Positions 2,948 to 57,032 of a stretch of DNA of 64,000 nt are shown here, in pieces. The notes beneath the pieces are model-generated. The model was given only the letters and a program-made list of their open reading frames with translations. It did no database searches and had not been told where the DNA came from. Positions within the stretch are counted from its first letter, which is position 1; every line of letters begins with the position of its first letter. The position numbers were made by a program, and so were the translations under genes. Source of the stretch: Candidatus Aenigmatarchaeota archaeon (GTDB taxonomy: Archaea; Aenigmatarchaeota; Aenigmatarchaeia; QMZP01); contig JBDRSV010000024.1 of the NCBI GenBank assembly GCA_043824495.1, forward strand, positions 91,056 to 155,055, given 5' to 3'.

Positions 2948-2964
2948 GTTCTCGCCGCGAATCC

Positions 2965-3004
2965 AAACAGGTATTCAAGAAGAGTCAATTCCTTCTGCCT
3001 GTTT
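2965..3004 (+). terminator. Hairpin terminator after the last gene of block I1
   Basis: AAACAGG (2965-2971) pairs with CCTGTTT (2998-3004), with an inner AGAAG/CTTCT pairing, followed by TTTTTAATTT. Confidence 0.55.
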
Positions 3005-3009
3005 TTAAT

Positions 3010-3030
3010 TTGTCTAATTAAAGGGATATA
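3010..3030 (-). repeat. Junction motif copy a (reverse complement TATATCCCTTTAATTAGACAA)
   Basis: Read directly from the sequence. GC-rich block on the left, AT-rich r-protein operon on the right. Confidence 0.9.
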
Positions 3031-11070: not shown

Positions 11071-11234
11071 AGCCCCGTAGTGTAGTGGTCAAAGTTTGAC
11101 AACCTGTGTGCTCGCATGTAGTTGTCTACACGACTAGGCATATCGGGCCTTGGTTTTCGCAACTAAGGATCTGAGCGAGAAATCGCTGTGAAAGAGGATA
11201 CCCGGTGACTGCGGTTCGAATCCGCACGGGGCTA
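11071..11234 (+). tRNA. Intron-containing tRNA, tentatively tRNA-Gln(UUG), with two putative introns (11093-11137 and 11154-11199)
   Basis: The 5' AGCCCCG-TA-GTGT-AGTGGTCAA and 3' TGCGG-TTCGAAT-CCGCA-CGGGGCT-A give acceptor (A1:U72), D and T arms. Removing the two inserts leaves a 73-nt cloverleaf with anticodon loop CCUUGGA. Confidence 0.6.
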
Positions 11235-11266
11235 TCATTTTTATTGTATACTTACAATTATTTCTT

Positions 11267-12952
11267 ATGTATCCACTAGAAAAGTTCAGAGACGATATTA
11301 AATCAGTGATAGCTGAATACAAAAAGATAAAGAAAGATGAAGTTGTTTTAGCAAAACCTCCTCAAGGTATTCCAGCAGATTTAGCCTATCCATGTTTTGG
11401 CTTGGCTAAAAGAGAAAAAAGAGATCCAGTAGAATTTGCTCTCACAACAGTGGAGAAAATAAAACCTAGAGGATTGATATCCAGAATAGAAGCTAATGGT
11501 CCATACATAAACTTCTATGCAGACTGGAGTAAGATGGGAAGCTTAGTTTTGAATGGAATAATAAAAGAAAAAAACGCTTATGGTAAAGGAAAGAAAAAGA
11601 ATAAGATTCTAGTGGAACACACTTCAGCCAATCCAGATGGTCCTTTACATCTAGGTCATTTCAGAAACACTGTTATAGGAGACTCTTTAGCAAGAATATT
11701 ACGATTCTATGGTCATGAAGTAAAAACAGATTTCTATGTAAATGATACAGGAAGACAAATAACTCTAGCTTCTTGGATGTATTTACAAAATGAGCCTAAA
11801 CCTAAAGGTAAGCTAGATTGGTGGGTTTATGACTTGTATTTCAAATGTAACCAGAAATTGAAAACCAATCCAAGTATAGAAAATGAAATAACAGATATGA
11901 TGCTTAAGTTTGAAAATGGAGATAAAGAACTAAGAAAAACACATGAGTTCATAGTTGATCAATGCTTGAAGGGGCATAAAGAAACTCTAGAAAGCATTGG
12001 AATTAAAATCGATAGATTCTCAAAGGAAAGCGAATTCCTATTCACTGGAAAAGTTGATGATGTTTTGAAGAAGATACTCAAAACAAAGGAAGGAAAATCG
12101 TCTGGTAAAAGAGTATGGGTTGACTTGAAACAATTCAAAATAGAAAGAGAATTCACTCTAACAAGATCTGATGGAACAACAATTTATCCAGCAAGAGATT
12201 TGGCATATCATGCAGACAAGTTTGAAAGAGCAGATCAAAACATAAATATTATAGGAACAGATCAGAAATTTTACTTCAAGCAGTTAACATCAACTCTTGG
12301 TTTACTATTTCCAAAGAAAACAGAGAATTATCATGTTTTGTTTTATGAGTTTTTGCTGTTGCCAGAAGGAACAATGTCTACACGTTTAGGTAAATTTATT
12401 TCAGTTGATGAACTTGTAAAGAAATTTACAGAAACTGCAAGAAAAAGTATAGAAATAAAAAATCCAAAATACTCAACTAAATTCAAGGATGATATAGCTA
12501 AGATGGTTGGTATAGGTGCATTGAAGTATGCAATGATAAAAGTTTCGCCTGAGAAAACATATTCTTTCAGTGTGGATGACAGCCTAAATTTCGAAGGTAA
12601 CACGGCACCTTATATTCAATATACTCATGCAAGAGCTTCTTCGATACTTCAGAAAGCTGGTAGTAGCAAACATGTAATCAAGTATATAGGAGAAGAAGAG
12701 AAACAAGTCATGAACAAGTTAATGGAATTCCCATATGCAGTGAAAAGAGCTTCTAAAGAATATAGACCACACATAATAGCTAACTATGCATATGATCTAG
12801 CAACGTCTTTCAATAACTTCTATCACTCGGTTCCTGTACTGAAAGCAGAAAAAGACTTAATAGGAACAAGACTAGCTATAGTAAAAGCTGCTCAGATAGT
12901 TTTGAAAACAAGTCTAGATCTTCTAGGTATAGAAGCACCTGATAAGATGTAG
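11267..12952 (+). CDS. argS: Arginine--tRNA ligase
   Basis: HTSANPDGPLHLGHFRNTVIGD (class I HIGH region typical of ArgRS). 561 aa with a C-terminal anticodon-binding-like region. Confidence 0.9.
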   Translation: MYPLEKFRDDIKSVIAEYKKIKKDEVVLAKPPQGIPADLAYPCFGLAKREKRDPVEFALTTVEKIKPRGLISRIEANGPYINFYADWSKMGSLVLNGIIKEKNAYGKGKKKNKILVEHTSANPDGPLHLGHFRNTVIGDSLARILRFYGHEVKTDFYVNDTGRQITLASWMYLQNEPKPKGKLDWWVYDLYFKCNQKLKTNPSIENEITDMMLKFENGDKELRKTHEFIVDQCLKGHKETLESIGIKIDRFSKESEFLFTGKVDDVLKKILKTKEGKSSGKRVWVDLKQFKIEREFTLTRSDGTTIYPARDLAYHADKFERADQNINIIGTDQKFYFKQLTSTLGLLFPKKTENYHVLFYEFLLLPEGTMSTRLGKFISVDELVKKFTETARKSIEIKNPKYSTKFKDDIAKMVGIGALKYAMIKVSPEKTYSFSVDDSLNFEGNTAPYIQYTHARASSILQKAGSSKHVIKYIGEEEKQVMNKLMEFPYAVKRASKEYRPHIIANYAYDLATSFNNFYHSVPVLKAEKDLIGTRLAIVKAAQIVLKTSLDLLGIEAPDKM

Positions 12953-15240: not shown

Positions 15241-15264
15241 TATATCCCTCTAATTAGACAATAT
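15241..15264 (+). repeat. Junction motif copy b (TATATCCCTCTAATTAGACAATAT)
   Basis: Read directly from the sequence. AT-rich on the left, GC-richer block I2 on the right. Confidence 0.9.
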
Positions 15265-15267
15265 AAA

Positions 15268-15298
15268 ACAATCAGGTGCCGAGTGCACACCTAATTGT
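15268..15298 (-). terminator. Imperfect hairpin downstream of the last gene of block I2
   Basis: ACAATCAGGTG (15268-15278) pairs with CACCTAATTGT (15288-15298) with one mismatch. On the gene strand it is followed by TTTATATT. Confidence 0.5.
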
Positions 15299-15315
15299 CC
15301 TTGCCAATCCTCTTC

Positions 15316-16422
15316 TCATCTCAGCTTCAAAAACGCTATATGAGGTGCAGGCAGCCACTTGACTAACGATTCAGTCCAAGAGAAAGACCATTTCAGCTTC
15401 TTCTTCATCTCGTGAACCTTCATACATTTCACCGAGACTAGATTCCAGTTCAGGATGCCGAAAGCTGTGCCCAAGAGACCACCGACAAGCATAACGAAGC
15501 CCTGTCCTACAAGATCCATTCCGGCGGAGGAAACGAGAAATTTGTAAGCGAGAAATCCGCCCAAGACTCCGTCAACTGCACACAACACTCTCTGGAAACA
15601 GTGAACCATCTTGATGATGTTCCAGATAAACTGACCGATAAATGTGAGGACCACCGAGATGCACACCAAGACAACGAAAATGACGGTCAGTGCAGTGAGA
15701 ATTGGGTACCAGACAGAAAGTAGAAGCAAACTGAAGAGAATGTATCCCATCGCGTTGAGATACCCGAGTTTTATTTCTCGGCGGTTCTTCTCCTCAAGGA
15801 AATACCTCCTTCTTAACACACCGATGTCGTATTTTTGGTCCGTGTGTCTGCTTATTCCGAGAGCCTCCCCAATACTCTTATAGTTGTACAAAACGTCTTC
15901 CCCGCTAGCGTCTTTCTTATCGACCATCATGAAAGGATAGAAGAACCTTCCGCGATCACGACTTCCAACAAAAGCGAGGAAAGAAAGAACGCCGGAAAAG
16001 ATCACAACACAGGCACCAGAGAGCGCCAACAGAAGAATGCTGCTGAGAGCGAGTTGAAGGATGTTCAGTGTTTCAGCATCTGCGAAAAGACCGGAAAATA
16101 TGTGATGTGCTGGCCACAAGCCGAGCACAAGACTCGGAAAAAGGAACGGGTGTGGCTTCGAGCATAACCAGTCCTTGGCTTTTCCGTAGTTGTCTCTGAT
16201 ATAAAACGGCCAAGTTCCGATATCATCCAACATCTCTCCGAGCATCACTTGGATCGCTTTGGCCACCTCACGGAGGTCGTAACCAAAATAACCAGCTGCT
16301 CCGCCGGCCAGGAAAGCAGCAACCCACATGTACAACTTGTCCGGCATCAGCCACATGGCAGTTGCACAGAACACGATGCCTCCAATGAAGCATCCGATTC
16401 CGATCTTCATCCAATCTTTCAT
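15316..16422 (-). CDS. Hypothetical polytopic membrane protein
   Basis: 368 aa with multiple hydrophobic helices. No family recognised. Confidence 0.6.
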   Translation of the reverse strand: MKDWMKIGIGCFIGGIVFCATAMWLMPDKLYMWVAAFLAGGAAGYFGYDLREVAKAIQVMLGEMLDDIGTWPFYIRDNYGKAKDWLCSKPHPFLFPSLVLGLWPAHHIFSGLFADAETLNILQLALSSILLLALSGACVVIFSGVLSFLAFVGSRDRGRFFYPFMMVDKKDASGEDVLYNYKSIGEALGISRHTDQKYDIGVLRRRYFLEEKNRREIKLGYLNAMGYILFSLLLLSVWYPILTALTVIFVVLVCISVVLTFIGQFIWNIIKMVHCFQRVLCAVDGVLGGFLAYKFLVSSAGMDLVGQGFVMLVGGLLGTAFGILNWNLVSVKCMKVHEMKKKLKWSFSWTESLVKWLPAPHIAFLKLR

Positions 16423-16489
16423 GGCGAAAATCTCCTTCTCGTTGTATTTCTTTGTTTATAGTTATCGTCCTAGAATTAATTCAAAACAA

Positions 16490-17041
16490 TCATATCTGCA
16501 AAGGTTCAAGCAGATACATCAGACTTCGGTCTCGTAATTCTGTCCTCTTATAAGGAGGGAGATCTATGAGACAAAGACTGGAAATACTCACGTGCATGGT
16601 TTGATACTTGGTTTCGTCTGCTTGGTACATTCCCGTAAAGATTATATTATTCAGGACAAACCCGGAAACTACTGTCCAGATCCAGAATGCCATCCATCCA
16701 TCGTACAAGAAGACGCTGGCAATCGCTGAAATGATTGCACCCACTGCGAGAACACCTACCTCAAAGAGAAGCATCGTAAAGATATCTCCCACGGGGTCGT
16801 TTTTGTCCTCTTCCCACCAATCCTCCATGACGAGTTCGTGGATAATCATGTCAATGAGATTCTGCCTGTTCTGCATTTTCTCGTGGTAGGCTATGAAACG
16901 AGTTGGTTGACGAATGTTGTGCCAGATGATCAATCCAATTGGCACCCAGATGACTGCTGTAGTGACAAGCAGCCAGAGAACTACTCTAGTTTCCATGTCC
17001 CCTCCAGGATTGATTGTTAGAAAAAATACTAGTATAATCAC
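16490..17041 (-). CDS. Hypothetical membrane protein
   Basis: 183 aa with about 4 TM helices and a GTG start at 17039-17041. Confidence 0.5.
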   Translation of the reverse strand: MIILVFFLTINPGGDMETRVVLWLLVTTAVIWVPIGLIIWHNIRQPTRFIAYHEKMQNRQNLIDMIIHELVMEDWWEEDKNDPVGDIFTMLLFEVGVLAVGAIISAIASVFLYDGWMAFWIWTVVSGFVLNNIIFTGMYQADETKYQTMHVSISSLCLIDLPPYKRTELRDRSLMYLLEPLQI

Positions 17042-17221
17042 TCTCGTTAATTGACATTTCTGTCTTTCGTTGTCGTAGAGTATTGATTCCTAAATTACAG
17101 ATGATGACTTTACCTCGAACAAGAATCTTGTGCCAGGTGCTAAAAGTTGTCAGCGATGATAAATGTGGAACATGATGCATAGAATTTAACCTAAAATTTT
17201 ATAAACCTATACAAAACCTTT

Positions 17222-17244
17222 TTATACCTCTTAATTGACAATAT
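17222..17244 (+). repeat. Junction motif copy c, divergent (TTATACCTCTTAATTGACAATAT)
   Basis: 18 of 22 positions match copy b in my ungapped alignment. Lies 5 nt upstream of ATG 17250. Confidence 0.65.
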
Positions 17245-17249
17245 ATAGT

Positions 17250-17639
17250 ATGAAGAAAAAAGCAAAGAGGACCACAAAGAAAACAGTGAAAAAACCAGTC
17301 AAGAAAATAAAAATAGAAAAGAGAGTAACACCAAAACCAAAAAAAGAAGAGAAAATTAAATGTCCTTATTGTAAGAGTTCTAGAGTGGTTTGGAGAGGAT
17401 ATAGATACAACGAAAAGACTGACAAGCACTTAAGATTATGTAACAACTGTAAGAGAAAGTTCACAAAAAGAGACGAGTTCTTCCGTATGAGATTCGGTGA
17501 AGAAGAGATAAAAAGAGCTGTGGAATTATACAAGAAAGGTTATTCTTCTGCAGAAGTAGTTCAGAACCTGAAAAGAAATCATGGAATAAAGGTTTCAAGA
17601 TGGACTGTGATCTGTTGGCATAAGAGATACACTAAGTAA
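17250..17639 (+). CDS. Zinc-ribbon plus HTH protein, IS1 InsA-like / transposase N-terminal-domain-like, without a catalytic domain
   Basis: Lys-rich N-terminus, CPYCKS...LCNNCKRKF (CxxC...CxxC), then GYSSAEVVQNLKRNHGIKVSRWTVICWHKRY (HTH-like). AT-rich backbone composition. Confidence 0.6.
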   Translation: MKKKAKRTTKKTVKKPVKKIKIEKRVTPKPKKEEKIKCPYCKSSRVVWRGYRYNEKTDKHLRLCNNCKRKFTKRDEFFRMRFGEEEIKRAVELYKKGYSSAEVVQNLKRNHGIKVSRWTVICWHKRYTK

Positions 17640-17659: not shown

Positions 17660-17681
17660 TATATCCCTTTAAATGGACAAT
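17660..17681 (+). repeat. Junction motif copy d (TATATCCCTTTAAATGGACAAT)
   Basis: Read directly from the sequence. A T-run lies upstream and GC-rich block I3 lies downstream. Confidence 0.9.
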
Positions 17682-17686
17682 GCAAA

Positions 17687-17723
17687 GGGAGAGGTGCAGT
17701 ATTCCACATCTGCACACTCTCCC
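17687..17723 (-). terminator. Imperfect hairpin downstream of the T9SS-domain gene
   Basis: GGGAGAGGTGCAG (17687-17699) pairs with CTGCACACTCTCCC (17710-17723), with mismatches. Confidence 0.5.
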
Positions 17724-17754: not shown

Positions 17755-19629
17755 TTACTTCAGAAGCGTCATCTTTTTGCTTTCCGTCAGGCTGGCCGTT
17801 TGCAACCGATAGAAGTACATACCGGACGCGACGGCCTTACCGTAGCGGTCGGTTCCGTCCCAGCTAACCTGATGTGTTCCTTCGGGCTGGGACCCGTTGA
17901 CGAGAGTGGCAACGTTGCGGCCGAGGATATCAAAGACCTCTAGCTTTACGTCTCCTCCCTGAGTCAACTGATAGGAAATCACGGTTCCGGCGTTGAAGGG
18001 GTTCGGGTAGTTCTGGTTCAAGCTGAATGATGTAGGAACGGCTCCTGTTGTCTTGTACGCGATGTTCAGCGTACCTAATGGAATCCACCCAGCCGGAACT
18101 GTCCGGCTGTTGTTGATCTCGTCAGCTATCGTTTTGGCCAACTCGTGATCGCCGAATGGATCGTCGATCAAGTTGTCGCAGTATGTTACCGCCTGTGACA
18201 CAGTCGCGCCGTCATCGCTAATCACAGCGGTTTGTGCCAGTTTGCCGCTAGCGACATTGAGTAGCAAAGCCATGAGTTGCTGTCTGGCTCGATCAATCAT
18301 GTCAACGCTGCCCTTGAGGTTCAGCAACGTCTTCGCGACTTCGAGCTTGTCTTCACAAAGATCCGACACGGGTGGATCGTACACGACGACCTCGTTCACT
18401 GCGTTCGAGTTGAAGTGGCCCGCGATGAGGTCGAGATAGCTACACAGAGTTGAAGCATCGATTTGCGCGCGGCCATTCCCACCAGTAGCGACGCCGACGT
18501 TGTGTTTCCAGAAGCCGATTGTTCGTTGTTCTCCAGCGTCTGACGGGCATCCCAATTCAAAGTCGATTTGGGCTGTGCCTTCACAATCGAGATCGACGGA
18601 CTGTTCGCTCGGAAATGCCGTATACCCGAGGGGGCCAACAAATGATACCATGTAGCTGGCCTCACCCGGGAGGTTCTCGAAATCGTAGTAACCGGCTTCA
18701 TCAGTCACAGCCGATTCTACAAGTACACCGGTGGCATCGAAGACATCAATCGTGATACCAAGAACAGAGCAGTCAGCACTCAGTGTGCCCTCAATTGCGG
18801 CGAAGCATTCTTCCTCTCCACCTCCGCATGCACACGTTCCATCTTCCACCTCAATGGCGGTGATGGTGTTGTCGTAGGCGTCCTTTGACCAGACGACGGT
18901 CAACGGCGCGAAGTTGATGACGTCGCATTCGAGATCCTCATCCCGACCACCGATCGTCGCGAAGTCACTGAGATACACGCCCGTTGTCTTGTCAATGCGA
19001 ACGATGTTGCCCAGACCATCGCGCCCGATGTAAAGGGTGTTCCCCGTCCCAACAATAACACCACTTATTCGATCCAGTGTATTGCCGGCCGCGTCGGTCG
19101 GATACAACGTTCCCAGATAGGCTCCCGAGCCCGCATCGAAGTGGTCAATGCCCGTTGATACATCATCGGAAACCCAGACACTGTTATCCGTCGCATCAAA
19201 GCCAATGCCGTCGATGAAACAGAAGCCCGGTGTTACCACAGAAAACTGGAAAGTGGCTACGCCGGTGGTGGGATCGATGAGATACACGTTCGCCGGACAT
19301 TCGTTGTCACTGCCTCCCCAGATCATGTTGCGCGTATTGTCCCATGCAATAGCGCCGATCGAAACTGGTGTGCCATCCGGTTTGAAAATGGAAACGAAGC
19401 CGAGATCGGTGCCGAATTTGTCTATCGAGTAGAGAGTTGGGTCGAAAGAGTTGGTGTAGAAAATCACACCATCACATCCAACTGCAACACCGATACCGAC
19501 ACCAGACGAGCTTGGAACAGGAACTGTGACGTTCGTGATGACATCACCGGGAGCTGCCATTGACGTAGCGGTGATAGCGGTGAAGAGGCAGAACACAACA
19601 AGCGCAGTGAAAGCTGTGAGACGCTTCAT
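17755..19629 (-). CDS. Secreted beta-propeller/CarboxypepD_reg-like protein with T9SS (Por) C-terminal sorting domain
   Basis: Signal peptide MKRLTAFTALVVFCLFTAITATSMA. The C-terminal NYPNPFNAGTVISYQL...VFDILGRNVATLV...GMYFYRLQT...KKMTLLK is the classic T9SS CTD pattern. GC-rich. Confidence 0.85.
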   Translation of the reverse strand: MKRLTAFTALVVFCLFTAITATSMAAPGDVITNVTVPVPSSSGVGIGVAVGCDGVIFYTNSFDPTLYSIDKFGTDLGFVSIFKPDGTPVSIGAIAWDNTRNMIWGGSDNECPANVYLIDPTTGVATFQFSVVTPGFCFIDGIGFDATDNSVWVSDDVSTGIDHFDAGSGAYLGTLYPTDAAGNTLDRISGVIVGTGNTLYIGRDGLGNIVRIDKTTGVYLSDFATIGGRDEDLECDVINFAPLTVVWSKDAYDNTITAIEVEDGTCACGGGEEECFAAIEGTLSADCSVLGITIDVFDATGVLVESAVTDEAGYYDFENLPGEASYMVSFVGPLGYTAFPSEQSVDLDCEGTAQIDFELGCPSDAGEQRTIGFWKHNVGVATGGNGRAQIDASTLCSYLDLIAGHFNSNAVNEVVVYDPPVSDLCEDKLEVAKTLLNLKGSVDMIDRARQQLMALLLNVASGKLAQTAVISDDGATVSQAVTYCDNLIDDPFGDHELAKTIADEINNSRTVPAGWIPLGTLNIAYKTTGAVPTSFSLNQNYPNPFNAGTVISYQLTQGGDVKLEVFDILGRNVATLVNGSQPEGTHQVSWDGTDRYGKAVASGMYFYRLQTASLTESKKMTLLK

Positions 19630-20175
19630 GGATTTTTATTCCTTAGGTTGTGAGGGAAATATGACCCTCCGGGTTTGTTTTTCGATTAGTTTCTGATTGT
19701 TTGTCGTTTACCACGTTTCCAAGTTAAGGTCCGCGAATCGCTATTTTCATTGGCATCCTCTCTTTGGGTTAATGTTGTCCGCACAAATTGCGGGATTAAA
19801 AGAAGGAAAGACACAAAAGATAGAGTATGTCTTATGTAGACTGAGAGTAAAATCATTCGAAGAATAAAGCTAATACTATTAAAACAAACATGCATGTTTG
19901 ATGTGTTTCTTTTCATGTTTTTTGTGTTAGCCAATGTACCGTTTCTATGGTTAATTGGATTGATTGAGTTGCAATCAATACAAATTTAAATGATGTTCGA
20001 ATGAGTAGCATGATTTAAATTGTATACAAAAATTGACGTTGATTCATCGTCGTTTTTTTGTGTTTTGGTATTTTTTTTGATTCTAGCTTGTCGCTTTTGT
20101 CAAGTCTTTAACTCAAGTATATAGCTTACAGGTATTTAAATGTTTTCTAACACATTTTTTTTAATTTTCTTTCTT

Positions 20176-20197
20176 TTATCCCTTTAAATAGACATAT
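20176..20197 (+). repeat. Junction motif copy e (TTATCCCTTTAAATAGACATAT)
   Basis: Read directly from the sequence. A T-run lies upstream and GC-rich block I4 lies downstream. Confidence 0.85.
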
Positions 20198-20206
20198 AAA
20201 AAGGCA

Positions 20207-20259
20207 AACGGGCGAAGATTTGGAGCCAAACTCTTCTTGATGTCTCACCTCCGCCCGTT
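20207..20259 (-). terminator. Compound hairpin next to motif copy e
   Basis: AACGGGCG (20207-20214) pairs with CGCCCGTT (20252-20259), with an inner GAAGATTTGG/CCAAACTCTTC stem. On the minus strand it is followed by TGCCTTTTTATAT. Confidence 0.4.
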
Positions 20260-21168
20260 AAATGCCGTTGTCCGGCCTATCAATTTACCCGCCGGTTAGG
20301 TGAGCACATGTGCTCGTGTCCCAGAGGCGCATGTTTTCATGCCCTCCTTTGCCGGGTTCTTACGCGAACGTGCTGCTTGACCGAGATAATGTAGCTGCCA
20401 GATTCCCCACAACCTTGTTATTGGTGGAACCGCGACAGCGGTCGGTCCAGTCCGTATGCATCGTAGCCTCACTTGGTGAAGGACTGCGAATCAAGAGACG
20501 GGGATTCAGAAGAATCCCCGTCTCACGAGTTGACGGTTGGTACGAGATATATCAAAGGAAGTCTTTATGCCATTGGGTGCATTCCGAAACCTTTAGCCTC
20601 GTCCGTCTCCGAGGGATCCTATCAAAGGTTTCATAAAGGAAATTTCATGGACCTCGTTACGATAGGATCGGAGTGGCGTAAAGCCACGGCCAGAACCTCG
20701 AGGTCCCCCAGGATAAGATCACCGTTTGAATATGAGTCAGCGGTGAACGTAAGGGTGCTGGCGATTCTTCTTCGCATTCAAACCCTCCAGGGAACACTTC
20801 GTAATTTGTGTTGTCAGCGGCTGTTTACGAATCGGCGGTGATCGTTTCCACCACGGTACATGTCGGCGTGGTGACAAACGATGAAGAAGCGACTTCAAAA
20901 CGCGCGCGGCCATTGCTCGGCGGCGGCGAATGAGCCCAGGCATTGACGGCGGTCGCGGCGGTATTCATCCAGGAAGCGACCACTGGTGACCCGCGAAGGG
21001 TCGGTAATCGGTTCATAGAGCAAGCTCCATTTCTTCCGATAGGAAAATTCCAATCCACTTTACAAACTCTCGCCTAAACAGAAAGTATTGTCACATAACT
21101 TTCCGTCGCAAAAGAGAATGTGAAGAGGAAACAATTTCGTACACCTCGTCAAGAGATCGTCTCCATTT

Positions 21169-21534
21169 TCACCCTACATGGGCTAGGCGAGAGGATAGAC
21201 CAGTTGCTGATAGAGATGTAGAGGGAACCGTTTTCATCCGAAGATCTCTCCCGTCCCTCAGGGAGTAAGTTGCTCGTCCACCAGGTTCCCATACCAAGGG
21301 AGCTGGCAACTCTGCCATTCTCTCTATCCGACTCTCTGTTGTCATCGCCACTACGGCAACAACTCTTAGCCTATCCGGCGTAGGATTATGAGAGTGTAGA
21401 GCGAATTCCTCGTTCCATGTTTGTTCTGTATCGCTGCCTGTTATGATATCCAATCCTGAAAACGGGATTGGGTCAGCGGTATAAACAATACAGGAACCAT
21501 ATATGAGGTAGCAGAGTGTCATGATTCCCAGCAT
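21169..21534 (-). CDS. Possible small secreted protein
   Basis: AAGGAG lies 5 nt upstream of the ATG, with a hydrophobic N-terminus MLGIMTLCYLIYGSCIVYTA. It is the only ORF in block I4 with a good RBS. Confidence 0.4.
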   Translation of the reverse strand: MLGIMTLCYLIYGSCIVYTADPIPFSGLDIITGSDTEQTWNEEFALHSHNPTPDRLRVVAVVAMTTESRIERMAELPAPLVWEPGGRATYSLRDGRDLRMKTVPSTSLSATGLSSRLAHVG

Positions 21535-23161
21535 GACAACTCCTTACAAGGGCACATGGTTATATGGTAAATGCTCTCTCCGTCAACAAATCGTGCCCTC
21601 TAAGACATGTTTAGGAGAGAAAGGCGACAACTCATGAAGTGTTCTTCAGGTGGACCCGTCATCACTGTTATTGCGTTGACGGCCTTCTCCTTGACCCGGA
21701 CTTAGACGTGTGGCTTTCGGTGTTTTCGCGGCGCGTTTCTGCTGTTTTGGACTACGCTTCTTGTTGCTCGGAAGCCCGTCTCGGGCACCACCGTGACACG
21801 TCATGAAAGACCTCGTTTGTGAGGAGTTCAGTTCAAGCTTGTGCTGGAACTGTTTGGAACGAGGAATTGTTACTCTTTACGGCGAGCGATTGTGTGTCAT
21901 CGTAACTCCTTGACAATGGTTTCCACAAGCTCCAAAATAAAAAAGAGCTGTTGTTTTCAAATTCAGTTGGGAATCTCCTAGCCCGCCCCCAGAACTGACT
22001 AGAGGAGATCCCCAACTTTTGTACAGCGCACCCCGTGCATTGTTTTCAGGGTGGAGGGGCCCGGCGGTCAACTGAGCCCCTCACTGGACGAATCGGTCAC
22101 AGATAACATGTTACGCATTACCGACTCGAAATCTATGCCACGGCAGTAGATGGAAGTGGTCGCATCTACCGCCGGGCTTCACGACGTTGTGCATTTTGTC
22201 GCCTTCAGCCTTACACAACGCCGTTATTTCCCCACCCACAGGGAATTTAATATCGCGGGGCCTCACTCAGGAGACCCCGCTTCCGTTGGGTTTACTACCG
22301 AATTGTTCGGTAGCGTTCTTCCACGACAGACATACGCACATGCGCACGTCTTCATTTCTTTGAGGACCTACTCATCTCCGATTTGAGTAGGTCCTCGGCT
22401 CCCCACAACCCCCCGATCAGCACCGGGAATTTTTTTGAGGGGAAATCTGAGCAGATATCTCAGACTCCCCTCCCGTCAGGTCTACCGACCAGCACTTCCG
22501 GTTGGACGCCGGAAATTCTTTATTAGAAGGGGTTTCCCCTCTCCAAGAAACCCCTTCCTCTTCGGCGTAGCGCGTCTCACGCGCTTTAGTGCATCGATCC
22601 CCACCGATCAGGTAAAACCCTTGGATGGTTCTCTCCCCGAACCCCCACTGAAATATTTTGGAACCCCTCATAGATCCCCGTAATCTCCGAGAGGTTCCGA
22701 CAGCAGCACCATACAAATGGGACTACCGTGACAATCAAAAATACCGGAATCCACCGCGTCAGAAGAGGATTCCGGTATTCTACATCGCTGGTTGTGTTGA
22801 GAGCTTACCCCTTACTGGTCTTAACGAGTATGTTACGTCGGACTTCCTTTCACCAAATATACGGGTCACTACAGAATACCCGATCGATCCGCTTTGTTGT
22901 CTTAATCTCACCAGCGGATAGTGACGCGGTTACAGCCAGCGATTTCGCCTTTATACAACAGGCGTCTCCAAACCAAAATGGAAATTGGAGTTGTTGCTTC
23001 CACACTTCCGGATTTCCCCCTCCGGTAAACTCTAAGGTACTGATAGGTGACCGCTCGTGTTTCTTGTGTTCGCAATTGCCGATTGCATCAAGCTCTTCGT
23101 AGATCTAGATCTGGAAGTAATTAGCAAACGATCACAATAAACAGACAACTGGGAGAAGTCC

Positions 23162-23788
23162 ATTTCTACCAGTACCTGGATTTTCTAACCCTCGGGAGGT
23201 GTGTACAAGCCTAAGCAGAGTTTGTCCTGTTGAATTGGCCCCGAGGGTAAGTGGCCTTCCGGAAGAGAATTGGTGAGGTCCTGTAACAGAACTCTATCTC
23301 ATTCCGGGGTAAAGCTCAAGGCACAGCCAGAAGGAGACGTATTACCTTGAGAAGTTGGTCTCCCGAGTGAAGAAATTCGAGATGTCCCATCGATGAAGGA
23401 CATCTCTTCTCCACTCGGGCTCATTCGTCAGCCTGGAAGGAGAAGTGCAAGAGTTTTCGCGCAATTACTCTCTCTCCTCCCGGGAAATTTATGACCTCCT
23501 GGTCCGAAACTTGTGCCGCGGTAAACCAGAAGGCGTAACTGCTAGGCTATGTGACGGCCACAGCAGTAGGGATCGAATCCAATACACGAAAGACAGCTAA
23601 GACTAACTCTGTCTCGTGTGGTTTACGAGTAAAATTCAGAAATCGATAGTCTTCGGCCTCTTCGAGGGAAACTGCTTAAGCGCTTAATTGCAGCGCGTTA
23701 TGTTTCCTGGTAAGTGACCTGTTCTCTAGGATGTACCGAAGGCTAACTTAGTTAGTCTCGGGAAATTCGCGTGTGATTGGTAGAAATG
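23162..23788. ncRNA. Candidate ~630-nt structured RNA (family unknown, strand undetermined)
   Basis: CATTTCTACCA (23162-23172) is complementary to TGGTAGAAATG (23778-23788). Internal helices include CCCTCGGG/CCCGAGGG and GAGATGTCC/GGACATCTC (23379-23406). No ORF. Confidence 0.35.
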
Positions 23789-23949
23789 AAACATGAAATG
23801 TCCTTATATATAAATGTAATTTAATTACTTAAATAGGTTGATGGATAGCTTTAAAAAGGTACTATTAAAATTATTTTTTTGTGAAGGGATCGATATACCA
23901 AGTGCTTCCAAAAATAAAGAGTAGAAAAAAATAAGAGTGAAAAAAGCAA

Positions 23950-25992
23950 TTAACCAATGAATTCAACCTTTTCAAAACTGCCGTTTTCTTCAAATTTGTC
24001 TAATGTTGATACGAAAATTATTACTTTTTTCTTGTCTTCTTTACAGATTCTAGCTGCTTGTTGTATTACCATGTTCTTGATTCTGTCTGAAGCACATATG
24101 AAATGATTGCTTTGTTTCAAGTCCTGATAAATTAATTCTCTATCATCTGTGTCTTCAACCATTATAGTTAATTCTTTTCCATCGTTCTGTAAATATATTC
24201 TGTTACCTTCTTGTTCACTCTTCCATCCGACTTCATTAAAGGTCTGCATGATACCTGTTAAGTTCAATTCTTTTTTCTGTGTTGAGTTACCAAATTTATT
24301 AGTGAAAACTTTCTCTCCTATATTTGTAAGAAAGTAATAACATAATCTATTCTTCTTAACTTTAGCATCAGCTGAATCAACTAATCCGTTATAAGTTAAG
24401 TTCTCAACCTTTTTCTTGAAAGTTGCTCCTGACATTTTTACATTTGTGTATATCTGAGATGTGTAAGCAGCACTACCATTACCAATGGTTTTCATCATAG
24501 CCCACTCTTGTTCTCCTAAATCCTCAATTGGAAGAGAGTTTATGAATTCTTCTTCCTTTACTGGAGGAGGTGAGTAGCTATCTTCTTTAGCTATTCTGTC
24601 TTTCATGTGCTCTCTGATATCATCATCTACAATAGAGTTCTTAACCAGTTTAGCCTTGTCGAATTTTACAAGGAATGGTTCTGGGAAATTCATAGAGTGT
24701 CTCAAAAGCATGAAACCGTGACCTACTGGCAGTCTTCTTAGATACTTACCTTCTTCTCTAGAATCAAGACCAAGCATGTTTGAAGCGTCTTGAATATCTG
24801 AAGTATGTTTTGTATCCAAACCTAGATTCATGTATATATGAGTAGAAGTATTACCAATTGCTGGATATGAAACTAAAGATGGATGCTGATCTATGTATAT
24901 CATTCCTAATCCTAATTCTCTAATTTCTCTAAATATTAATTCTACAACGGTTTCTGATCCTAATTTGGCAGATTTTTCTCTGTTAAGAACATGATGAGCT
25001 TCTTCCATCACTATACATCCTATGACTTCTTCTTTTCCGCCTTCTACGAGTAACCAATCTCTTATCCACTGTAGAATTATTTCTATGATAAAGCTCTTAT
25101 CATTAACATCAAGAGCATCTAATTCTAGAATTGTTACCTTTCCTTTCTTGAAGAAATCAGATGGTTTTATACCTTCTACACAGTCGAATATATGACCTGT
25201 GTCTTTGAAGCATAATGACTCTAATGGTCTTTCAGCTGTTGCTAACCAGTTTCTTTCTCTTGTTGGCAGCTTACCTTCTGCATATTCTGCTAAGTAATCT
25301 TTAAGGTCAAACAGTGTTGGATTTTTCTTTTCCTTGAAAACTCCATCTAAAGCTTTCAAGATTACGTGTCTTCCACCACCGAGTAACCAGTAAGAATGAT
25401 CGAATATTGAAGAGAACTCTTTCATCCACTGTGTTTGACTAATTCCTTTAGGACCTTTCAGTGGATTGAATTTGAAAGGAGCTACGCCTCTTCCGATTGT
25501 GTAAATATCTATTTTGTCTTTAATTTTAGTTGATAGTAAATCTTTATAATTTCTCTTAGAGAAATCAAATATCAAAACAGGAATATCCTTTTCTGCTAAT
25601 TCTTCAATTAAGTTATATGAAATATTTGTTTTACCATAACCAGATGAACCAAATATTCCTATATGTGTAAGTAAGTTTTTCTCTTCTAGCATGATTGGAT
25701 ATAAACCCTTTCTTCCGTATAAAACATCACCTAATCTAATTGTTCCTTTAGCTGCTGCTTCTTGGCTAGGAGGTTCCATTAGTACTGTATCTCTTAGATC
25801 TTCATCAGCAGAAACTGCGGCTTTTATAACATCAAGTAGTTCGAAGATTCTTTGTCTTACATCTTCGTTTCCAACTAAGTAAGCTTTACTTAATCTCAAA
25901 GCTTTGTCTTTACCCAAGATTGGAGTAAGCTTCTTAATTTCATCTGCAATTAGTTTTTCTTGAATATTAATCATTTGTACCACCCAAATCAT
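23950..25992 (-). CDS. HerA/DUF87-type P-loop ATPase with C-terminal winged-helix-like region
   Basis: Walker A GIFGSSGYGKTN and Walker B-like GCIVMEEAHHV. 680 aa. Confidence 0.7.
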   Translation of the reverse strand: MIWVVQMINIQEKLIADEIKKLTPILGKDKALRLSKAYLVGNEDVRQRIFELLDVIKAAVSADEDLRDTVLMEPPSQEAAAKGTIRLGDVLYGRKGLYPIMLEEKNLLTHIGIFGSSGYGKTNISYNLIEELAEKDIPVLIFDFSKRNYKDLLSTKIKDKIDIYTIGRGVAPFKFNPLKGPKGISQTQWMKEFSSIFDHSYWLLGGGRHVILKALDGVFKEKKNPTLFDLKDYLAEYAEGKLPTRERNWLATAERPLESLCFKDTGHIFDCVEGIKPSDFFKKGKVTILELDALDVNDKSFIIEIILQWIRDWLLVEGGKEEVIGCIVMEEAHHVLNREKSAKLGSETVVELIFREIRELGLGMIYIDQHPSLVSYPAIGNTSTHIYMNLGLDTKHTSDIQDASNMLGLDSREEGKYLRRLPVGHGFMLLRHSMNFPEPFLVKFDKAKLVKNSIVDDDIREHMKDRIAKEDSYSPPPVKEEEFINSLPIEDLGEQEWAMMKTIGNGSAAYTSQIYTNVKMSGATFKKKVENLTYNGLVDSADAKVKKNRLCYYFLTNIGEKVFTNKFGNSTQKKELNLTGIMQTFNEVGWKSEQEGNRIYLQNDGKELTIMVEDTDDRELIYQDLKQSNHFICASDRIKNMVIQQAARICKEDKKKVIIFVSTLDKFEENGSFEKVEFIG

Positions 25993-26515
25993 TAAAGATC
26001 TTTAAGATCTTATTTTCTGTTTGTAGTTGTTCCAGGAGCTCTCTTAGCTCTGTTTTTAATTCTAATCCATCTCTCCAAAAAAGAATATTTTCTTGTCTTT
26101 TTTCTTTTCTGAGAATAGAAACATCAAGTTTGAAATTTCTCTTTTCATCGATGTCTGTGATATGATTCATCATATCGTCTTTTTCTTCGATGTCTTCTTC
26201 AATTTCTTTTAAGAATGTTTTGTGGAGAACTTCTCTTTCTTTCATAGTGTTTTCAATTTCACTAACTCTTATTTGCAAGAATTCTACTTTATCGAATAAG
26301 CTTCCAATAACTAGAGGATCATCTCTTTTTAGAGCAGTGAGTTTACTTTCTTCAAATCTTGGCATTGATCTTTTCTTAATAATTTGAACTTCTCTAACTT
26401 CGGGTTCATCTAGATCAATCTCATCATGTCTAATTAAAGACTCACGTCTTCTCTTTTTTGTAATGTCTTCATACTCGTCAAGAGTTTTATAATAGGGTTC
26501 CATTAATCTGTCCAT
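25967..26515 (-). CDS. Coiled-coil protein, overlaps the start of the ATPase gene
   Basis: 182 aa, highly charged with a heptad-like E/K/L-rich sequence. Confidence 0.5.
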   Translation of the reverse strand: MDRLMEPYYKTLDEYEDITKKRRRESLIRHDEIDLDEPEVREVQIIKKRSMPRFEESKLTALKRDDPLVIGSLFDKVEFLQIRVSEIENTMKEREVLHKTFLKEIEEDIEEKDDMMNHITDIDEKRNFKLDVSILRKEKRQENILFWRDGLELKTELRELLEQLQTENKILKIFNDLGGTND

Positions 26516-27342
26516 AATAATTACCTCGAGTGACCATTTGTCACTATCTGATAGTTAAAATATGTATAAAGGGTTTATAAAGCTTTCGGTTAGCTTGCAG
26601 TGTGCTGTTTTTGAGCGTAAAAATCGTGTACGAAAGACAATTTTCTTGGGTTTCCATGACTTTTGTGCCAACGAAAGACATATTCTGTCTTTAGTAAGAG
26701 AGTTAATAAAGATTTCTGTCTCGCGCCTTATAAAGGATCCGAATTGGATATTTTATATAGTAATTAATTACTATTGTAGAGATCTTTATTTACTTAAGTC
26801 TTTACATAAATAATTCTCAAATACTTTTTGTCTTTGCTAAAGTTTAATGCAGATTTTCCTCGAAACTTTTGTGGAAATTCTTGAAATCAAATGTCTTCTA
26901 GTTTTGCTAGAGCTTTTGAAGACATGGAAACTCTCATAAAACCCCAACCGAAAAGTATTTAAACCCTTTGACTATAATTTCACTATAGATTAGTGACAAC
27001 AAATTAAGAAATGTCTGAGTTATGTGTGGTGTCAAATCCTACATAACTATCTTTACAATCTACGCAACTTTGAATAAAAAGAATTTCGGGTTAAACTCGC
27101 AATTCTAAACTCAGAGAAATTGAGTGCACAGGAATTTAGGCGCGGCCTAAAATCCCCATAAGAAATCCAAAAAAATGACACGCTTTGTGTCAAAAAATGT
27201 GATTTGAGGGGGTTTGATTTCCTTAGCTCTGAGTATCTACTTTTCGAAAACCACGAAGACTCGCGTAACAATTCTAAGCAATAAATATAGTGAAATTCCA
27301 GACTTCTGTAGACTTTCGCTGTCTGACATAGAAATTAACAAG

Positions 27343-27353
27343 TTGACAATAAA
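27343..27353 (+). promoter_or_regulatory. TTGACAATAAAC box (sigma70 -35-like), first of three copies
   Basis: The same box recurs at 29367 (CTGACAATAAAC) and 30278 (TTGACAATTAAC), each 35-55 nt upstream of a start codon. Confidence 0.4.
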
Positions 27354-27377
27354 CGGAAACTTCTGGGAGGGATTGTC

Positions 27378-27740
27378 ATGAGAAATATCATGAGCTGTGT
27401 TTTCCTGCTGCTCACATTATTCCTGGTGAGTTGTGCGAAAAGTGGTCCGGAGCTGGGGAGTGATATCCGGATCAGTGGAACAATCGTCGACATGAGCGAA
27501 GGAGGTAGTAGGGATTTCCTGATCCAGTCCGGAGGAAAACTCTACCATTTCGGTACTCGACTGCAATTTAAATGGAGTAAACTTCGTGCGGGACATTACG
27601 TCACCGTGGATGGGAAGTTTGGGGGACCGTGCGAGGAAGCCTCAATGTTCAGACGCTACATGTACGACGACGAAGGGAACTTCATCAAGTCCCTCGAGGT
27701 CTATGACATCATCCATGTTTCGAACGTGGAGAGGCAGTGA
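27378..27740 (+). CDS. Putative lipoprotein
   Basis: MRNIMSCVFLLLTLFLVSCAKSG (lipobox LVSC), with GGGAGGG upstream. Confidence 0.6.
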   Translation: MRNIMSCVFLLLTLFLVSCAKSGPELGSDIRISGTIVDMSEGGSRDFLIQSGGKLYHFGTRLQFKWSKLRAGHYVTVDGKFGGPCEEASMFRRYMYDDEGNFIKSLEVYDIIHVSNVERQ

Positions 27741-28098
27741 TCCCACTGAGTTCATCCAATTCATCGGGTGGACCCAGATGAGATTATTGTCTAAAGGCTA
27801 AATCAGCAGGCCTTGAATTGTTGGTAGGGATCATTGGAAGATTCCCAAAAACATGGCAAGGAGGGCAACATGTCGCAGGGAACCAAAAACACCAAAGACA
27901 CAGGAACAAGAGCGTTTCTGGTTATCGACGGAACTACAGGAGACCTCATTCCTGTGAAAGCATCGTCTGGACGAAAAGCTGAGCAAATCGCCGGCAGCGT
28001 AACCAGACAATCCCGCAAATAAAATTACCCACTGTGAATTCCCCAGGAGTATCATCCGCCCGGAAGATACTCTGTTCTCCCCCATACTACCATAGGCC

Positions 28099-28138
28099 AC
28101 ACGGAGCTCATCAGGTTTTCACTTGGTGGGCTCCAGTG
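28099..28138 (+). promoter_or_regulatory. Conserved intergenic hairpin element, copy 1
   Basis: CACGGAGCTCAT...GGTGGGCTCCAGTG. Shares the GAGCTCAT / GGTGGGC core with copies 2 and 3 but has a different, still complementary, outer stem. Confidence 0.45.
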
Positions 28139-28240
28139 AGATCTTTGGTGGTTAACGTTCCATAACCGTTTCATTCACAACCTTTTGCCGACCTTGTCTG
28201 CATTGCAGCTCAAGGAAGTGTGTAAAGGAAGGAGAGTGTC

Positions 28241-28942
28241 ATGTTATTGCATGTAACAGTAATAAGCCGCGGAGACAGAACAACGATCGATGTTCCCAGA
28301 ACAGAATTCAACTGGGATACCAATCAATGTCGCGTAGTTGAAGGTGCAGAGGAAGCTGAAAGAAATCTCGGGGTGGCGGAGAATCTCGAAATCCGTAAAC
28401 CCGCGGCTTACCAGGGACCCTATTTATACTGTATTGTAGAGGTGGGGTTCGAGGAAATTTGTTTTCCCCCGACTTTCCTCAAGTGGATCGAGAATGTTCC
28501 CGAGGATGAGAAAAGAGCCATCCTTATCGTTCCCACCAAAACCATCCGAAAGGCCGATGATAGTCACTATATGGGATCTATAGATCGTTATAGGTATTAT
28601 CCTCATGGTGAAGTCTTCCTGATTGGTCGCAGAATCATCGTGAGGAACATCTACCTATCACCTGATAACATCAAGATGGTGGTGGATAAAATCCTTGCCC
28701 GACTGAGTGACGGCCTGTTCCTCCGGTTGGCCTTTGAGTTTCTCCAGGCTACGCCGATCAGTGACAATCCTACGGTGACTGGAGAACATATCACCATGTT
28801 GGATAATCTCTTCACGGGGACGCGTTCCCTTCGGAGAGGAGATTCAACTCGTCGCGAACGGTTCAATCATGTTCGGGCCGTGATTGGACATATGGCCAAA
28901 CACGGGATAGTTCTGTCTGGCAAGATCGAACCCGTGAAGTAA
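28241..28942 (+). CDS. Hypothetical protein
   Basis: 233 aa with AAGGAAGGAGAG upstream. No family recognised. Confidence 0.6.
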   Translation: MLLHVTVISRGDRTTIDVPRTEFNWDTNQCRVVEGAEEAERNLGVAENLEIRKPAAYQGPYLYCIVEVGFEEICFPPTFLKWIENVPEDEKRAILIVPTKTIRKADDSHYMGSIDRYRYYPHGEVFLIGRRIIVRNIYLSPDNIKMVVDKILARLSDGLFLRLAFEFLQATPISDNPTVTGEHITMLDNLFTGTRSLRRGDSTRRERFNHVRAVIGHMAKHGIVLSGKIEPVK

Positions 28943-28995
28943 TCAACGGCTTGGAAACCAAGTCAAATCAACGACAATGAAAGTTGAGGTGTAAT

Positions 28996-29316
28996 ATGAA
29001 TAGGCGAATACAGAGTATGATTGTGATGACTGCGACTTTGATAGCTGTTGCAGTCTTTCTCCAAGTCTCACAGCTTCACGCGGCACATTTGATGGCAACC
29101 GCAATTGCAATTGCGGTTGTGGTGATGATCGTTGTTAACATGGGAAGAGTTCCCAACACTCGGCAGAAGTTTCGGAACTTCTCTGTCGGAGCCGTTTTCG
29201 GGAGCATCTTCCTGTGGGAGTTGTTCAAGGTTACGTTCTTGAATCACCCTGCGGCTCTTTGGAGTGTGGTTGTACTCGGAGCTGCGGCAGTCTCATTTCT
29301 GACGTTCCGCCGGTAG
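28996..29316 (+). CDS. Hypothetical membrane protein
   Basis: Three hydrophobic helices. GAGGTG lies 4-5 nt upstream of ATG 28996. Confidence 0.55.
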   Translation: MNRRIQSMIVMTATLIAVAVFLQVSQLHAAHLMATAIAIAVVVMIVVNMGRVPNTRQKFRNFSVGAVFGSIFLWELFKVTFLNHPAALWSVVVLGAAAVSFLTFRR

Positions 29317-29330
29317 TACTGAAGTTCACC

Positions 29331-29361
29331 GGGGATCCCGATCAATCTGGTTGGGATCCCC
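29331..29361 (+). terminator. Hairpin terminator (GGGGATCCC...GGGATCCCC)
   Basis: 9 bp perfect stem. A homologous copy lies at 30241-30273. Confidence 0.6.
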
Positions 29362-29414
29362 TCAACCTGACAATAAACTGTTGTTAAATGTTCCATTACA
29401 CCAAGGAGGGCGCA

Positions 29415-30233: not shown

Positions 30234-30240
30234 TTGTTAC

Positions 30241-30273
30241 AGGGGATCCTGACCAATTCGGTTGGGATCCCTT
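30241..30273 (+). terminator. Hairpin terminator, duplicate of 29331-29361
   Basis: AGGGGATCC...GGATCCCTT, followed by the same CAACTTGACAAT box. Confidence 0.55.
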
Positions 30274-30333
30274 CAACTTGACAATTAACGTAACATGTTA
30301 ACAATGAATACCAACAGAGAAGGAGAAAGTCAA

Positions 30334-31659: not shown

Positions 31660-31947
31660 AGCCGAACGCCACGAATTACTAATCCGCTCTTCTTCCCAAA
31701 GAAGTGTGGCTAGTGTGAAAGGAGTATGGGAAGGTTCCACAGTAGTAGCATCAACGGCAAAAAGTAAAAGACAAAAAAATGAAGGCCAAACCCGAGGAGG
31801 AACTCGAAGTGAAGACGAAACGAAGGTCATGCCAATATCCCATTTCGCCCATGATGGCGACTCATATTCTCATAGTCTGACCGGCCGCCGGCGACGCCAC
31901 GGGCCTCTTATATAGTTAGCGGGGCCCATCGCCAATGCAGTCAAAAT

Positions 31948-31975
31948 CCCGGGTAGGCTTCAACCCCTACCCGGG
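31948..31975 (+). terminator. Hairpin terminator CCCGGGTAGG...CCTACCCGGG
   Basis: 10 bp perfect stem. Confidence 0.6.
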
Positions 31976-36279: not shown

Positions 36280-36286
36280 GATTTGT

Positions 36287-36308
36287 ATTGTCTAATTAAA
36301 GGGATATA
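36287..36308 (-). repeat. Junction motif copy f (reverse complement TATATCCCTTTAATTAGACAAT)
   Basis: Read directly from the sequence. GC-rich block on the left, AT-rich DNA on the right. Confidence 0.9.
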
Positions 36309-56966: not shown

Positions 56967-56990
56967 TATATCCCTTTAAATAGACAATAT
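56967..56990 (+). repeat. Junction motif copy g (TATATCCCTTTAAATAGACAATAT)
   Basis: Read directly from the sequence. VanZ stop plus a T-run on the left, GC-rich block I6 on the right. Confidence 0.9.
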
Positions 56991-56991
56991 A

Positions 56992-57032
56992 AAGGGGAAA
57001 GTGTGATTGGTGGTCACACTTTTTCTCCCCTT
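56992..57032 (-). terminator. Hairpin downstream of the last gene of block I6
   Basis: AAGGGGAAAGTGTGA (56992-57006) pairs with TCACACTTTTTCTCCCCTT (57014-57032), with bulges. Confidence 0.55.

Follow-up and report, generated by a model that had tools for sequence, protein, structure and literature searches.

The retention by a host of a transposase DNA-binding domain together with scattered old transposon sites is a classic route to regulatory networks in eukaryotes, while in prokaryotes it is barely documented, and to our knowledge neither in archaea nor in the IS6 family. [quoted passage not shown] RAYTs are domesticated IS200/IS605 TnpA proteins that keep the catalytic HUH/Tyr domain and act on single-stranded hairpins. 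In the IS6/IS26 family, the segment M1-P56 of the IS26 transposase Tnp26 suffices for the specific recognition of the terminal inverted repeat (TIR), binding needs F4, F9, R49 and W50, and a G-to-T change in the TGT triplet of the TIR abolishes it (Pong et al., PMC8477213). Hallmarks of IS6-family ends are GG tips, an internal TGT and 8-bp duplications, and in the longer members a zinc ribbon precedes the HTH (PMC7986276).

The locus considered here lies in a stretch of 64,000 nt from a Candidatus Aenigmatarchaeota genome (hereafter, the window; Table 1), and related loci are indicated by L numbers. Taken as a whole, we read it as a domesticated IS6 DNA-binding module accompanied by a TIR-derived motif, with the protein acting as a repressor of motif-derived promoters, and assign to this reading a probability of roughly 55%.

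Table 1. Coordinates of the features discussed in the text (positions in the window).
Feature	Position	Strand	Remark
Stand-alone zinc ribbon and HTH (ZnF-HTH) gene, 129 aa	17250..17639	+	homology to the N-terminus of IS6-family transposases
Lys-rich tail, residues 1-35	17250-17354	+	
C4 zinc ribbon, residues about 36-72	17355-17465	+	
Phe-rich arm and three-helix HTH, residues 73-127	17466-17630	+	
Promoter-type motif copy, TTTATACCTCTTAATTGACAATATATA	17221..17247	+	ends 2 nt before the ATG
Canonical motif copy, TIR-derived site in right-end position	17660..17686	+	starts 20 nt after the stop
Canonical motif copy	15241..15267	+	tip abuts GC-rich island 15268 to about 17100
Canonical motif copy	20175..20201	+	tip abuts ORF-poor GC-rich stretch 20202 to about 23790, facing the DUF87 gene
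Canonical motif copy	3004..3030	-	tip abuts left GC-rich island holding the M32 carboxypeptidase
Canonical motif copy	36282..36308	-	tip abuts GC-rich island about 27340 to 36281
Canonical motif copy, perfect consensus match	56967..56993	+	tip abuts GC-rich island 56994 to about 59100
GC-rich hairpin, GGGAGAGGTGCAG...CTGCACACTCTCCC	17687..17723	+	starts at motif tip; -23.8 vs -6.9 kcal/mol in shuffles
Arginyl-tRNA synthetase (ArgRS) gene	11267..12952	+	directly adjoins the ZnF-HTH gene in some twenty distinct related loci
DUF87/HerA-like ATPase (680 aa) and 182-aa protein	23950..26515	-	conserved syntenic neighbours
Foreign islands	1-3003, 15268-~17100, 17687-~19860, 20202-~23790, ~27340-36281, 56994-~59100		composition
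624-aa protein with T9SS sorting domain	17755..19629	-	convergent with the copy at 17660
Two island genes, 368 aa and 183 aa	15316..17041	-	GC3 0.57 and 0.51; converge on the 15241 copy
M32 carboxypeptidase	868-2388		E 3e-178; foreign island left of the 3004 copy

The open reading frame on the + strand (ATG at 17250, stop codon at 17637-17639) codes for 129 aa and is present in a single copy in the 64-kb window. An in-frame TTG at 17235 precedes this ATG, falls within the motif copy at 17221-17247 and is unlikely to serve as start codon. The identical protein is found at NCBI (ABIJ92_04335, hypothetical protein, 171,815-bp contig of a Candidatus Aenigmatarchaeota MAG) and is carried as well by an independent Logan contig. 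The preliminary description of this DNA had recognised a Lys-rich tail, a CxxC...CxxC ribbon and an HTH in a gene of this length, and all three are confirmed. C38/C41 and C64/C67 are invariant in the alignment of homologues, and 38 columns are invariant across 12 homologues. In the AlphaFold model, for which the alignment input consisted of 12 sequences, two ribbon strands (46-52 and 60-64) are followed by helices at 73-81, 84-95, 100-111 and 117-127, with residues 84-127 forming a three-helix bundle and pLDDT values of 84-95 across this HTH region. Matches of the modelled fold to solved structures were weak (all E > 0.1), the DNA-binding domain of SETMAR on its TIR being among them, and no sequence relative with a solved structure was found. 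The Lys-rich residues 1-35 are missing in 12 out of 12 of the closest homologues, and the tail was discarded as a conserved feature; the apparent match in L135 crosses a stop codon. The backbone composition claimed earlier for the gene, in the midst of the array, was also observed: its GC3 of 0.35 is close to that of the backbone (0.19-0.33), whereas the array neighbours have values of 0.51-0.61.

A scan of metagenomes with an alignment of homologues returned 56 loci (265 kb), which mostly code for stand-alone proteins of 94-109 aa; a more distant group, consisting of L163, L165 and the cut L164, is full-length. The proteins of L163 and L165 (292-312 aa) score 138.9 and 127.4 bits on NF033587, above the IS6 transposase cut-off of 125, they contain DDE_Tnp_IS240 (E 2e-19 and 9e-17), and their closest relatives are annotated IS6 transposases from several archaeal phyla. 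When used as tblastn queries against the window, both align with 17361-17636 over about 91 residues at 47-49% identity (E 1e-23 to 4e-25). In archaeal metagenomes, 583 matches were obtained for full-length relatives carrying this TIR, mostly on contigs of ~1 kb, as would be expected of multi-copy insertion sequences. Pfam revealed no DDE domain in the window protein, and tblastn detected neither a DDE remnant (E<=10) nor a full-length IS6 copy within the 64 kb.

The protein had been likened both to IS1 InsA and to the N-terminal DNA-binding domains of transposases, and of this comparison only the second part, together with the absence of a catalytic domain, holds. In Pfam and NCBIfam the window protein gave only sub-threshold matches (a Terminase_5-type HTH, assorted zinc ribbons, Zn_ribbon_InsA), with the exception of a local match of residues 78-128 to positions 2-52 of the IS6 transposase model (E 5e-5). 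Zn_ribbon_InsA (PF03811) reached 12.7 bits (E 0.11) against a cut-off of 26.1, the IS1 transposase model was matched weakly and by the full-length relatives only, and no insB-like ORF lies downstream of the gene; an identity as InsA was therefore rejected, and the family is IS6/IS26. In the alignment with Tnp26, the sequence of which had been verified on annotated plasmids, F4, F9, W50 and Y54 correspond to F77, F82, W123 and Y127 of the window protein and R49 is not conserved, its counterpart being C122. The C-terminus of the stand-alone proteins falls at the equivalent of Tnp26 residue ~57, i.e., at the end of the M1-P56 segment. Judged by these homologies, the window protein is a stand-alone version of the ZnF-HTH N-terminal module of an archaeal IS6-family transposase, devoid of the DDE domain, and by homology with Tnp26 it very probably binds the 27-nt motif that accompanies its gene.

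The consensus of this motif is TATATCCCTTTAAnTTGACAATAnAAA. Seven copies are found in the window, with none expected by chance, and a search allowing <=3 mismatches gave 5 matches compared to 0 expected from 100 shuffles; when a loose pattern was run over genome contigs, it returned mostly chance bacterial matches and few archaeal ones. The copies reported to flank the gene are in place on either side of it, and they are direct repeats, both on the + strand, rather than inverted ones. Inverted arms that begin with GG occur in the full-length relatives, at 502-526 and 1490-1514 in L165, where a 7-8-bp direct repeat lies outside, and at 176-200 and 1164-1188 in L163; these elements measure about 1015 bp and the 3' end of the motif is outermost. 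ACA at motif positions 18-20 is invariant, and its reverse complement is TGT. The copies beside the window gene retain this TGT and end in AAA or ATA instead of CC, and the canonical copies in the window and in the other stand-alone loci keep the inner part of the motif while the terminal ..ATATCC has become ..ATAyAAA and the GG/CC tip is gone. With the inner part conserved and the tip replaced, they resemble binding sites that can no longer be cleaved. Compared in this way, the 27-nt motif descends from the TIR of an archaeal IS6-family element.

Five of the seven copies (3004, 15241, 20175, 36282 and 56967) have TAGACA at positions 15-20, where other genomes have mostly TTGACA; the TAGACA variant also occurs in the closest relative, L126, and suggests a concerted evolution of the sites or their co-evolution with the protein.

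A prior prediction was that a DNA binder located here would recognise the motif, in which case homologues and motif should occur together, and this is what the 56 loci indicate. Motif copies within 120 nt of the gene were found in 31 of them (37 copies), to be compared with 15 copies elsewhere in the 265 kb, and in block shuffles there were 0 copies near the gene and about 0.3 elsewhere; besides, in the full-length relatives the motif is the TIR itself. Full-length loci carry it as the usual inverted ends, while the stand-alone layout comprises a canonical copy 4-91 nt after the stop, which is kept in most stand-alone loci, and a degenerate copy, equally oriented, immediately ahead of the ATG. 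The protein could in principle be a generic small zinc-ribbon transcription factor unrelated to the motif, the latter being the standard strong promoter of the lineage and their adjacency a matter of chance. The Pfam matches, weak and scattered among zinc-ribbon and HTH families, would suit such a factor, and the motif does resemble other promoters of the genome, e.g., TATTTAAACCCCTTTT at 50829. Nonetheless, the scarcity of the motif away from the gene and its frequency beside it are difficult to ascribe to chance, and elements encoding a transposase with a homologous N-terminus are bounded by the motif at both ends, so that we consider a generic factor very improbable.

The stand-alone gene might also represent the remnant of a decaying insertion sequence, a functionless truncated transposase pseudogene with left-over ends, given that the gene is flanked by TIR-like repeats and that its product amounts to the N-terminal third of a transposase. 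The comparative data speak strongly against it. The ORF is intact, at 94-109 aa, in >35 loci, dN/dS among stand-alone genes is 0.04-0.11 where dS is unsaturated, denoting purifying selection, and the 38 invariant columns mentioned above tell against decay as well. In a neighbour-joining tree of 100 columns, calculated without bootstrap support, the stand-alone proteins all fall into a single clade, with the full-length transposases carrying this TIR as its sister group. The gene adjoins ArgRS even where ArgRS is only 34-39% identical to that of the window, in which a 4.3-kb insertion separates the two genes, and the position between ArgRS and DUF87 is kept across lineages. The flanking copies are, moreover, direct and not inverted repeats. 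We regard a decaying remnant as next to impossible, and the conservation described points to an old, vertically inherited domestication of the IS6 DNA-binding module.

On the other side of the gene, a motif tip faces the 3' end of the DUF87/182-aa gene pair across a variable spacer; the pair is present in at least 6 lineages, and in L147 the gene order is rearranged with the tip still directed toward the DUF87 3' end. The DUF87 ATPase (23950-25992, - strand) is linked to the ZnF-HTH gene and motif even with other flanking genes (L005, L152). It partially matches the "DNA-translocating ATPase CedD" (E 8e-17) and anti-phage HerA models, and its C-terminal region matches CARF-associated models. 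With PADLOC, the DUF87 protein gave only weak HerA-type matches and the ZnF-HTH protein no meaningful ones, and a defence system was rejected on these results.

The gene had also been proposed to be expressed from a motif copy, and as far as sequence can tell this appears to be so. TTTATA-type boxes occur about 27-32 nt before many backbone ATGs in the window, a distance that leaves room for a short leader at most. The TATA-like 5' end of the 17221 copy lies about 31 nt before the ZnF-HTH ATG, as in the other promoters of the window, and with the ATG 2 nt past the motif the mRNA would be leaderless or nearly so. The layout recurs in other lineages, where the ATG is 0-11 nt after the upstream copy, as in L002, L126, L127, L135 and L138; in a second lineage group the central TTTAAATA of the motif appears, from a reading of the sequence, to serve as TATA box. 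Because a TATA-like box stands at promoter spacing and the arrangement is recurrent, the TIR derivative is a putative promoter of the gene; the motif, with its archaeal TATA-like box, has the appearance of a promoter of archaeal type, from which transcripts would begin close to the 3' end of the motif.

From the biochemistry of Tnp26, the protein would contact the inner part of the motif with TTGACA (TGTCAA on the other strand), and the binding site would lie downstream of the TATA box and ahead of the start site, the usual place of action of archaeal repressors. The predicted binding core is located between the TATA-like box and the ATG, with the geometry of an archaeal repressor acting on its promoter, and at such a site the protein would repress its own promoter copy (17221) as well as the outward canonical copies. 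The latter would fire outward, giving RNAs with a 5' stem-loop that extend into the neighbouring imported genes in antisense. Against the repressor model stands the replacement by C122 of a residue, R49, that Tnp26 needs for binding. The model also leaves unexplained the presence of foreign DNA at the motif tips and the turnover beside the tips between close relatives.

Stems usually follow the motif tips, with a mean folding energy of -10.3 kcal/mol, vs. -7.0 kcal/mol in shuffles, and long-range stems at the tips score 20.8 vs. 16.0. L130 and L132, which are 96% identical, show two compensatory changes in the post-motif stem. With their T/A runs, the tip hairpins may just as well terminate the transcription of the convergent genes as form the 5' ends of outward RNAs. 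The long-range stem right after the motif differs between the same two loci (GGGAGGGGAGGAG/CTCCTCCCCTC vs. GGGGGGAGAGGAG/CTCCTCTCCCC, L130 5261-5400 vs. L132 3524-3660), and a TCCCGGCrACCTAC-like block follows the stem in L139 (2199-2300), L141 (5889-5990) and at the 20175 copy of the window. A Shine-Dalgarno sequence with a small ORF after the motif was considered and rejected, as it fits few loci and the conserved nucleotides are out of frame between L139 and L141.

Besides repressing promoters, the same protein could primarily be an inhibitor of transposition or an immunity factor, occupying the ends of active IS6-family elements and the solo TIRs and blocking the full-length transposase, with any effect on transcription being secondary. 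A TIR-recognition module, by homology, without a catalytic domain is what such a factor would require, full-length relatives that carry this TIR occur widely, and in multiple copies, across archaeal metagenomes, and the loss of the terminal GG/CC with retention of the inner TIR part is as expected for sites that are only bound. On the other hand, the 64-kb window holds no full-length IS6 copy against which to act, and inhibition explains neither the retention of solo copies at syntenic positions across genomes nor the motif-derived promoter of the gene itself. A role as inhibitor is accordingly an unlikely explanation, albeit one with some credit, and repression of motif-derived promoters is preferred.

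The window is a mosaic of a backbone with about 33% GC and islands with about 50% GC, about one third of it being foreign by composition, and 6 of the 6 canonical copies abut an island exactly at their tip. Island genes have GC3 values of 0.5-0.7 (0.19-0.33 in the backbone), and all named homologues of the 624-aa island protein belong to Zixibacteria (45-62% identity). The foreign composition, the M32 carboxypeptidase and the Zixibacteria-like protein with its T9SS tail point to a cross-domain transfer into a DPANN genome. Considering all loci, the ORFs of at least 200 codons beside the tips are convergent in 12 cases and co-directional in 0, and the GC jump at the tips is strong in low-GC genomes and weak overall (+0.04, p = 0.04). 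Island 3, which includes 29328-30289, has Shine-Dalgarno sites of bacterial style and terminator hairpins.

In the same island, at 29328-29378 and 30239-30289, gene starts are preceded by a repeated hairpin (GGGGATCC...GGGATCCCC) and then by CAACyTGACAATwAAC, in which the TGACAAT, similar to the core of the motif, is probably a bacterial -35-like element.

A comparison of the window with L002, L126 and L152 shows a conserved backbone and unrelated blocks at the motif tips, the copy at 17665(-) in L002 having the same relative position as that at 36282-36308(-) in the window. L139 and L141 have flanks that are 84-89% identical and give no alignment for 500-700 nt after the tip, and the unit of motif plus cargo measures 143 nt in L130 vs. 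1368 nt in the 96% identical L132. An origin of the mosaic from chimeric assembly was rejected and is unlikely because an independent Logan contig of 48 kb runs from 17094 to past the window end, over all junctions right of the gene, and because the motif-then-island layout is repeated in the unrelated assemblies L126, L135, L137 and L161. That contig begins at ~17094, 157 nt upstream of the gene and in the spacer after the 15268-17100 island, which may reflect a branch of the assembly graph due to strain heterogeneity at the insertion.

A backbone-composition segment of the window is missing from L002, namely that with an MmeI-type fused restriction-modification enzyme (39330-42056, -) and a DDE_Tnp_1 (IS4/IS5-like) transposase (44028-45038, +). 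The inositol-1-phosphate synthase gene at 47035-49560 (-) contains an intein with a LAGLIDADG endonuclease, and its L002 orthologue (360 aa) is intein-free.

An ORF-poor stretch of 1.9-3.6 kb separates the motif tip from the DUF87 3' end in the window (20202-23790), L002 (10327-12614), L005 (10339-12830) and L152 (6327-8221), with frequent stems and tetraloop-like hairpins. Rfam at gathering thresholds and ARAGORN (tRNA) gave nothing in the window, Rfam at E<=1 nothing in 20100-24000, and seven related loci showed no known RNA in their corresponding gaps; rRNA, tRNA or other known RNAs in the GC-rich stretches were rejected on these grounds. A large conserved non-coding RNA between motif and DUF87 was likewise rejected, as blastn found no similarity between lineages beyond the motif and no 8-9-mers are shared by 15 lineages. 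L152 has a match to the archaeal RNase P RNA at 11126-11474 (41.9 bits vs. a gathering threshold of 84, E 1.5e-8), which probably represents a divergent RNase P RNA of the DPANN kind.

In this genome, solo TIR sites and imported DNA are truly linked. Candidate causes are an IS6-type cointegration followed by decay, an ongoing capture, and a selection for insulation or silencing. In the case of capture, the solo sites would be recombination hot spots, where a transposase provided in trans integrates or exchanges foreign DNA next to the TIR tip and the ZnF-HTH protein marks or synapses the sites; the mode would be that of IS26, by cointegration or targeted conservative insertion. The exact abutment of foreign DNA on all canonical copies, the unrelated blocks beside the tips of syntenic genomes, the abrupt loss of alignment between L139 and L141, the unequal units of L130 and L132 and the Zixibacteria-like cargo gene agree with a capture platform, and the copies of the array, being in direct orientation, resemble those around IS26 cargo (PMC7986276). 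However, neither the window nor the related loci yielded a recombinase or a transposase with this TIR, the GG tip that the IS6 family uses for cleavage (PMC7986276) has been lost from the canonical copies, the motif is present at one border only of each island, the GC jump is weak overall and the strict convergence of cargo genes is not predicted by IS26-type capture. We consider a capture platform quite improbable.

A broader view combines several of these elements: an IS6 element would have been turned into a fixed device of Aenigmatarchaeota-type DPANN archaea for integron-like docking, exchange and antisense or roadblock silencing of foreign cassettes. The TIR-binding protein and the immobile solo TIR sites would define docking points on the chromosome, foreign and even bacterial cassettes would be repeatedly inserted or exchanged beside the TIR tip, and transcription from the TIR promoter would then control them by an antisense or roadblock effect. 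This view is speculative and, in our opinion, improbable.

Under the preferred reading, i.e., a domesticated module repressing motif-derived promoters, the novelty resides in the ancient domestication, in archaea, of the IS6 DNA-binding module, accompanied by immobilised TIR sites that are putative promoters and markers of island borders; a limited literature search found no description of an archaeal IS6-family case of this kind. It is a clean case, as the ancestor family, the cognate site, the loss of catalysis and tips and the long vertical inheritance can all be read from the sequence, and the sites fall on the borders of cross-domain imports into a genome of reduced, symbiont type. If the link between sites and imports were causal, it would bear on how DPANN archaea acquire and tame foreign genes.

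With IS6/IS26 the locus shares a homologous Phe-rich arm and three-helix HTH, a zinc ribbon ahead of the HTH as in longer members, such as archaeal and clostridial ones, and a cognate repeat with the TGT of the family, which in full-length relatives comes with GG tips and a 7-8-bp target duplication (L165). It differs in that the window protein lacks the DDE domain and ends where Tnp26 M1-P56 ends, its gene is single-copy, syntenic and vertically inherited, and the flanking repeats are direct, with an A-run in place of the GG cleavage tip. IS1 InsA, from a different family, is the closest functional analogy; InsA is, however, made within an active IS1 upstream of insB, while the window protein has no partner ORF and stands outside a mobile element. 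The repeated site separating foreign cassettes of one orientation and the variable hairpin beside a conserved core recall integrons, but conservation here is limited to one side of the hairpin, without an R''/R' pair, the site is an IS6 TIR derivative, and no integron integrase was found among the Pfam matches of the genes called in 17-62 kb. As for RAYT and REP sequences, a single-copy transposase-derived gene is flanked by cognate repeats and further copies are dispersed in intergenic positions, typically at the 3' ends of convergent genes, with the difference that here the DNA-binding domain alone survives and the repeat is a double-stranded TIR derivative. The eukaryotic KP repressor, SETMAR and the THAP and BED factors likewise keep a transposase DNA-binding domain without catalysis and recognise scattered old transposon ends, but they derive from other superfamilies and belong to another domain of life.
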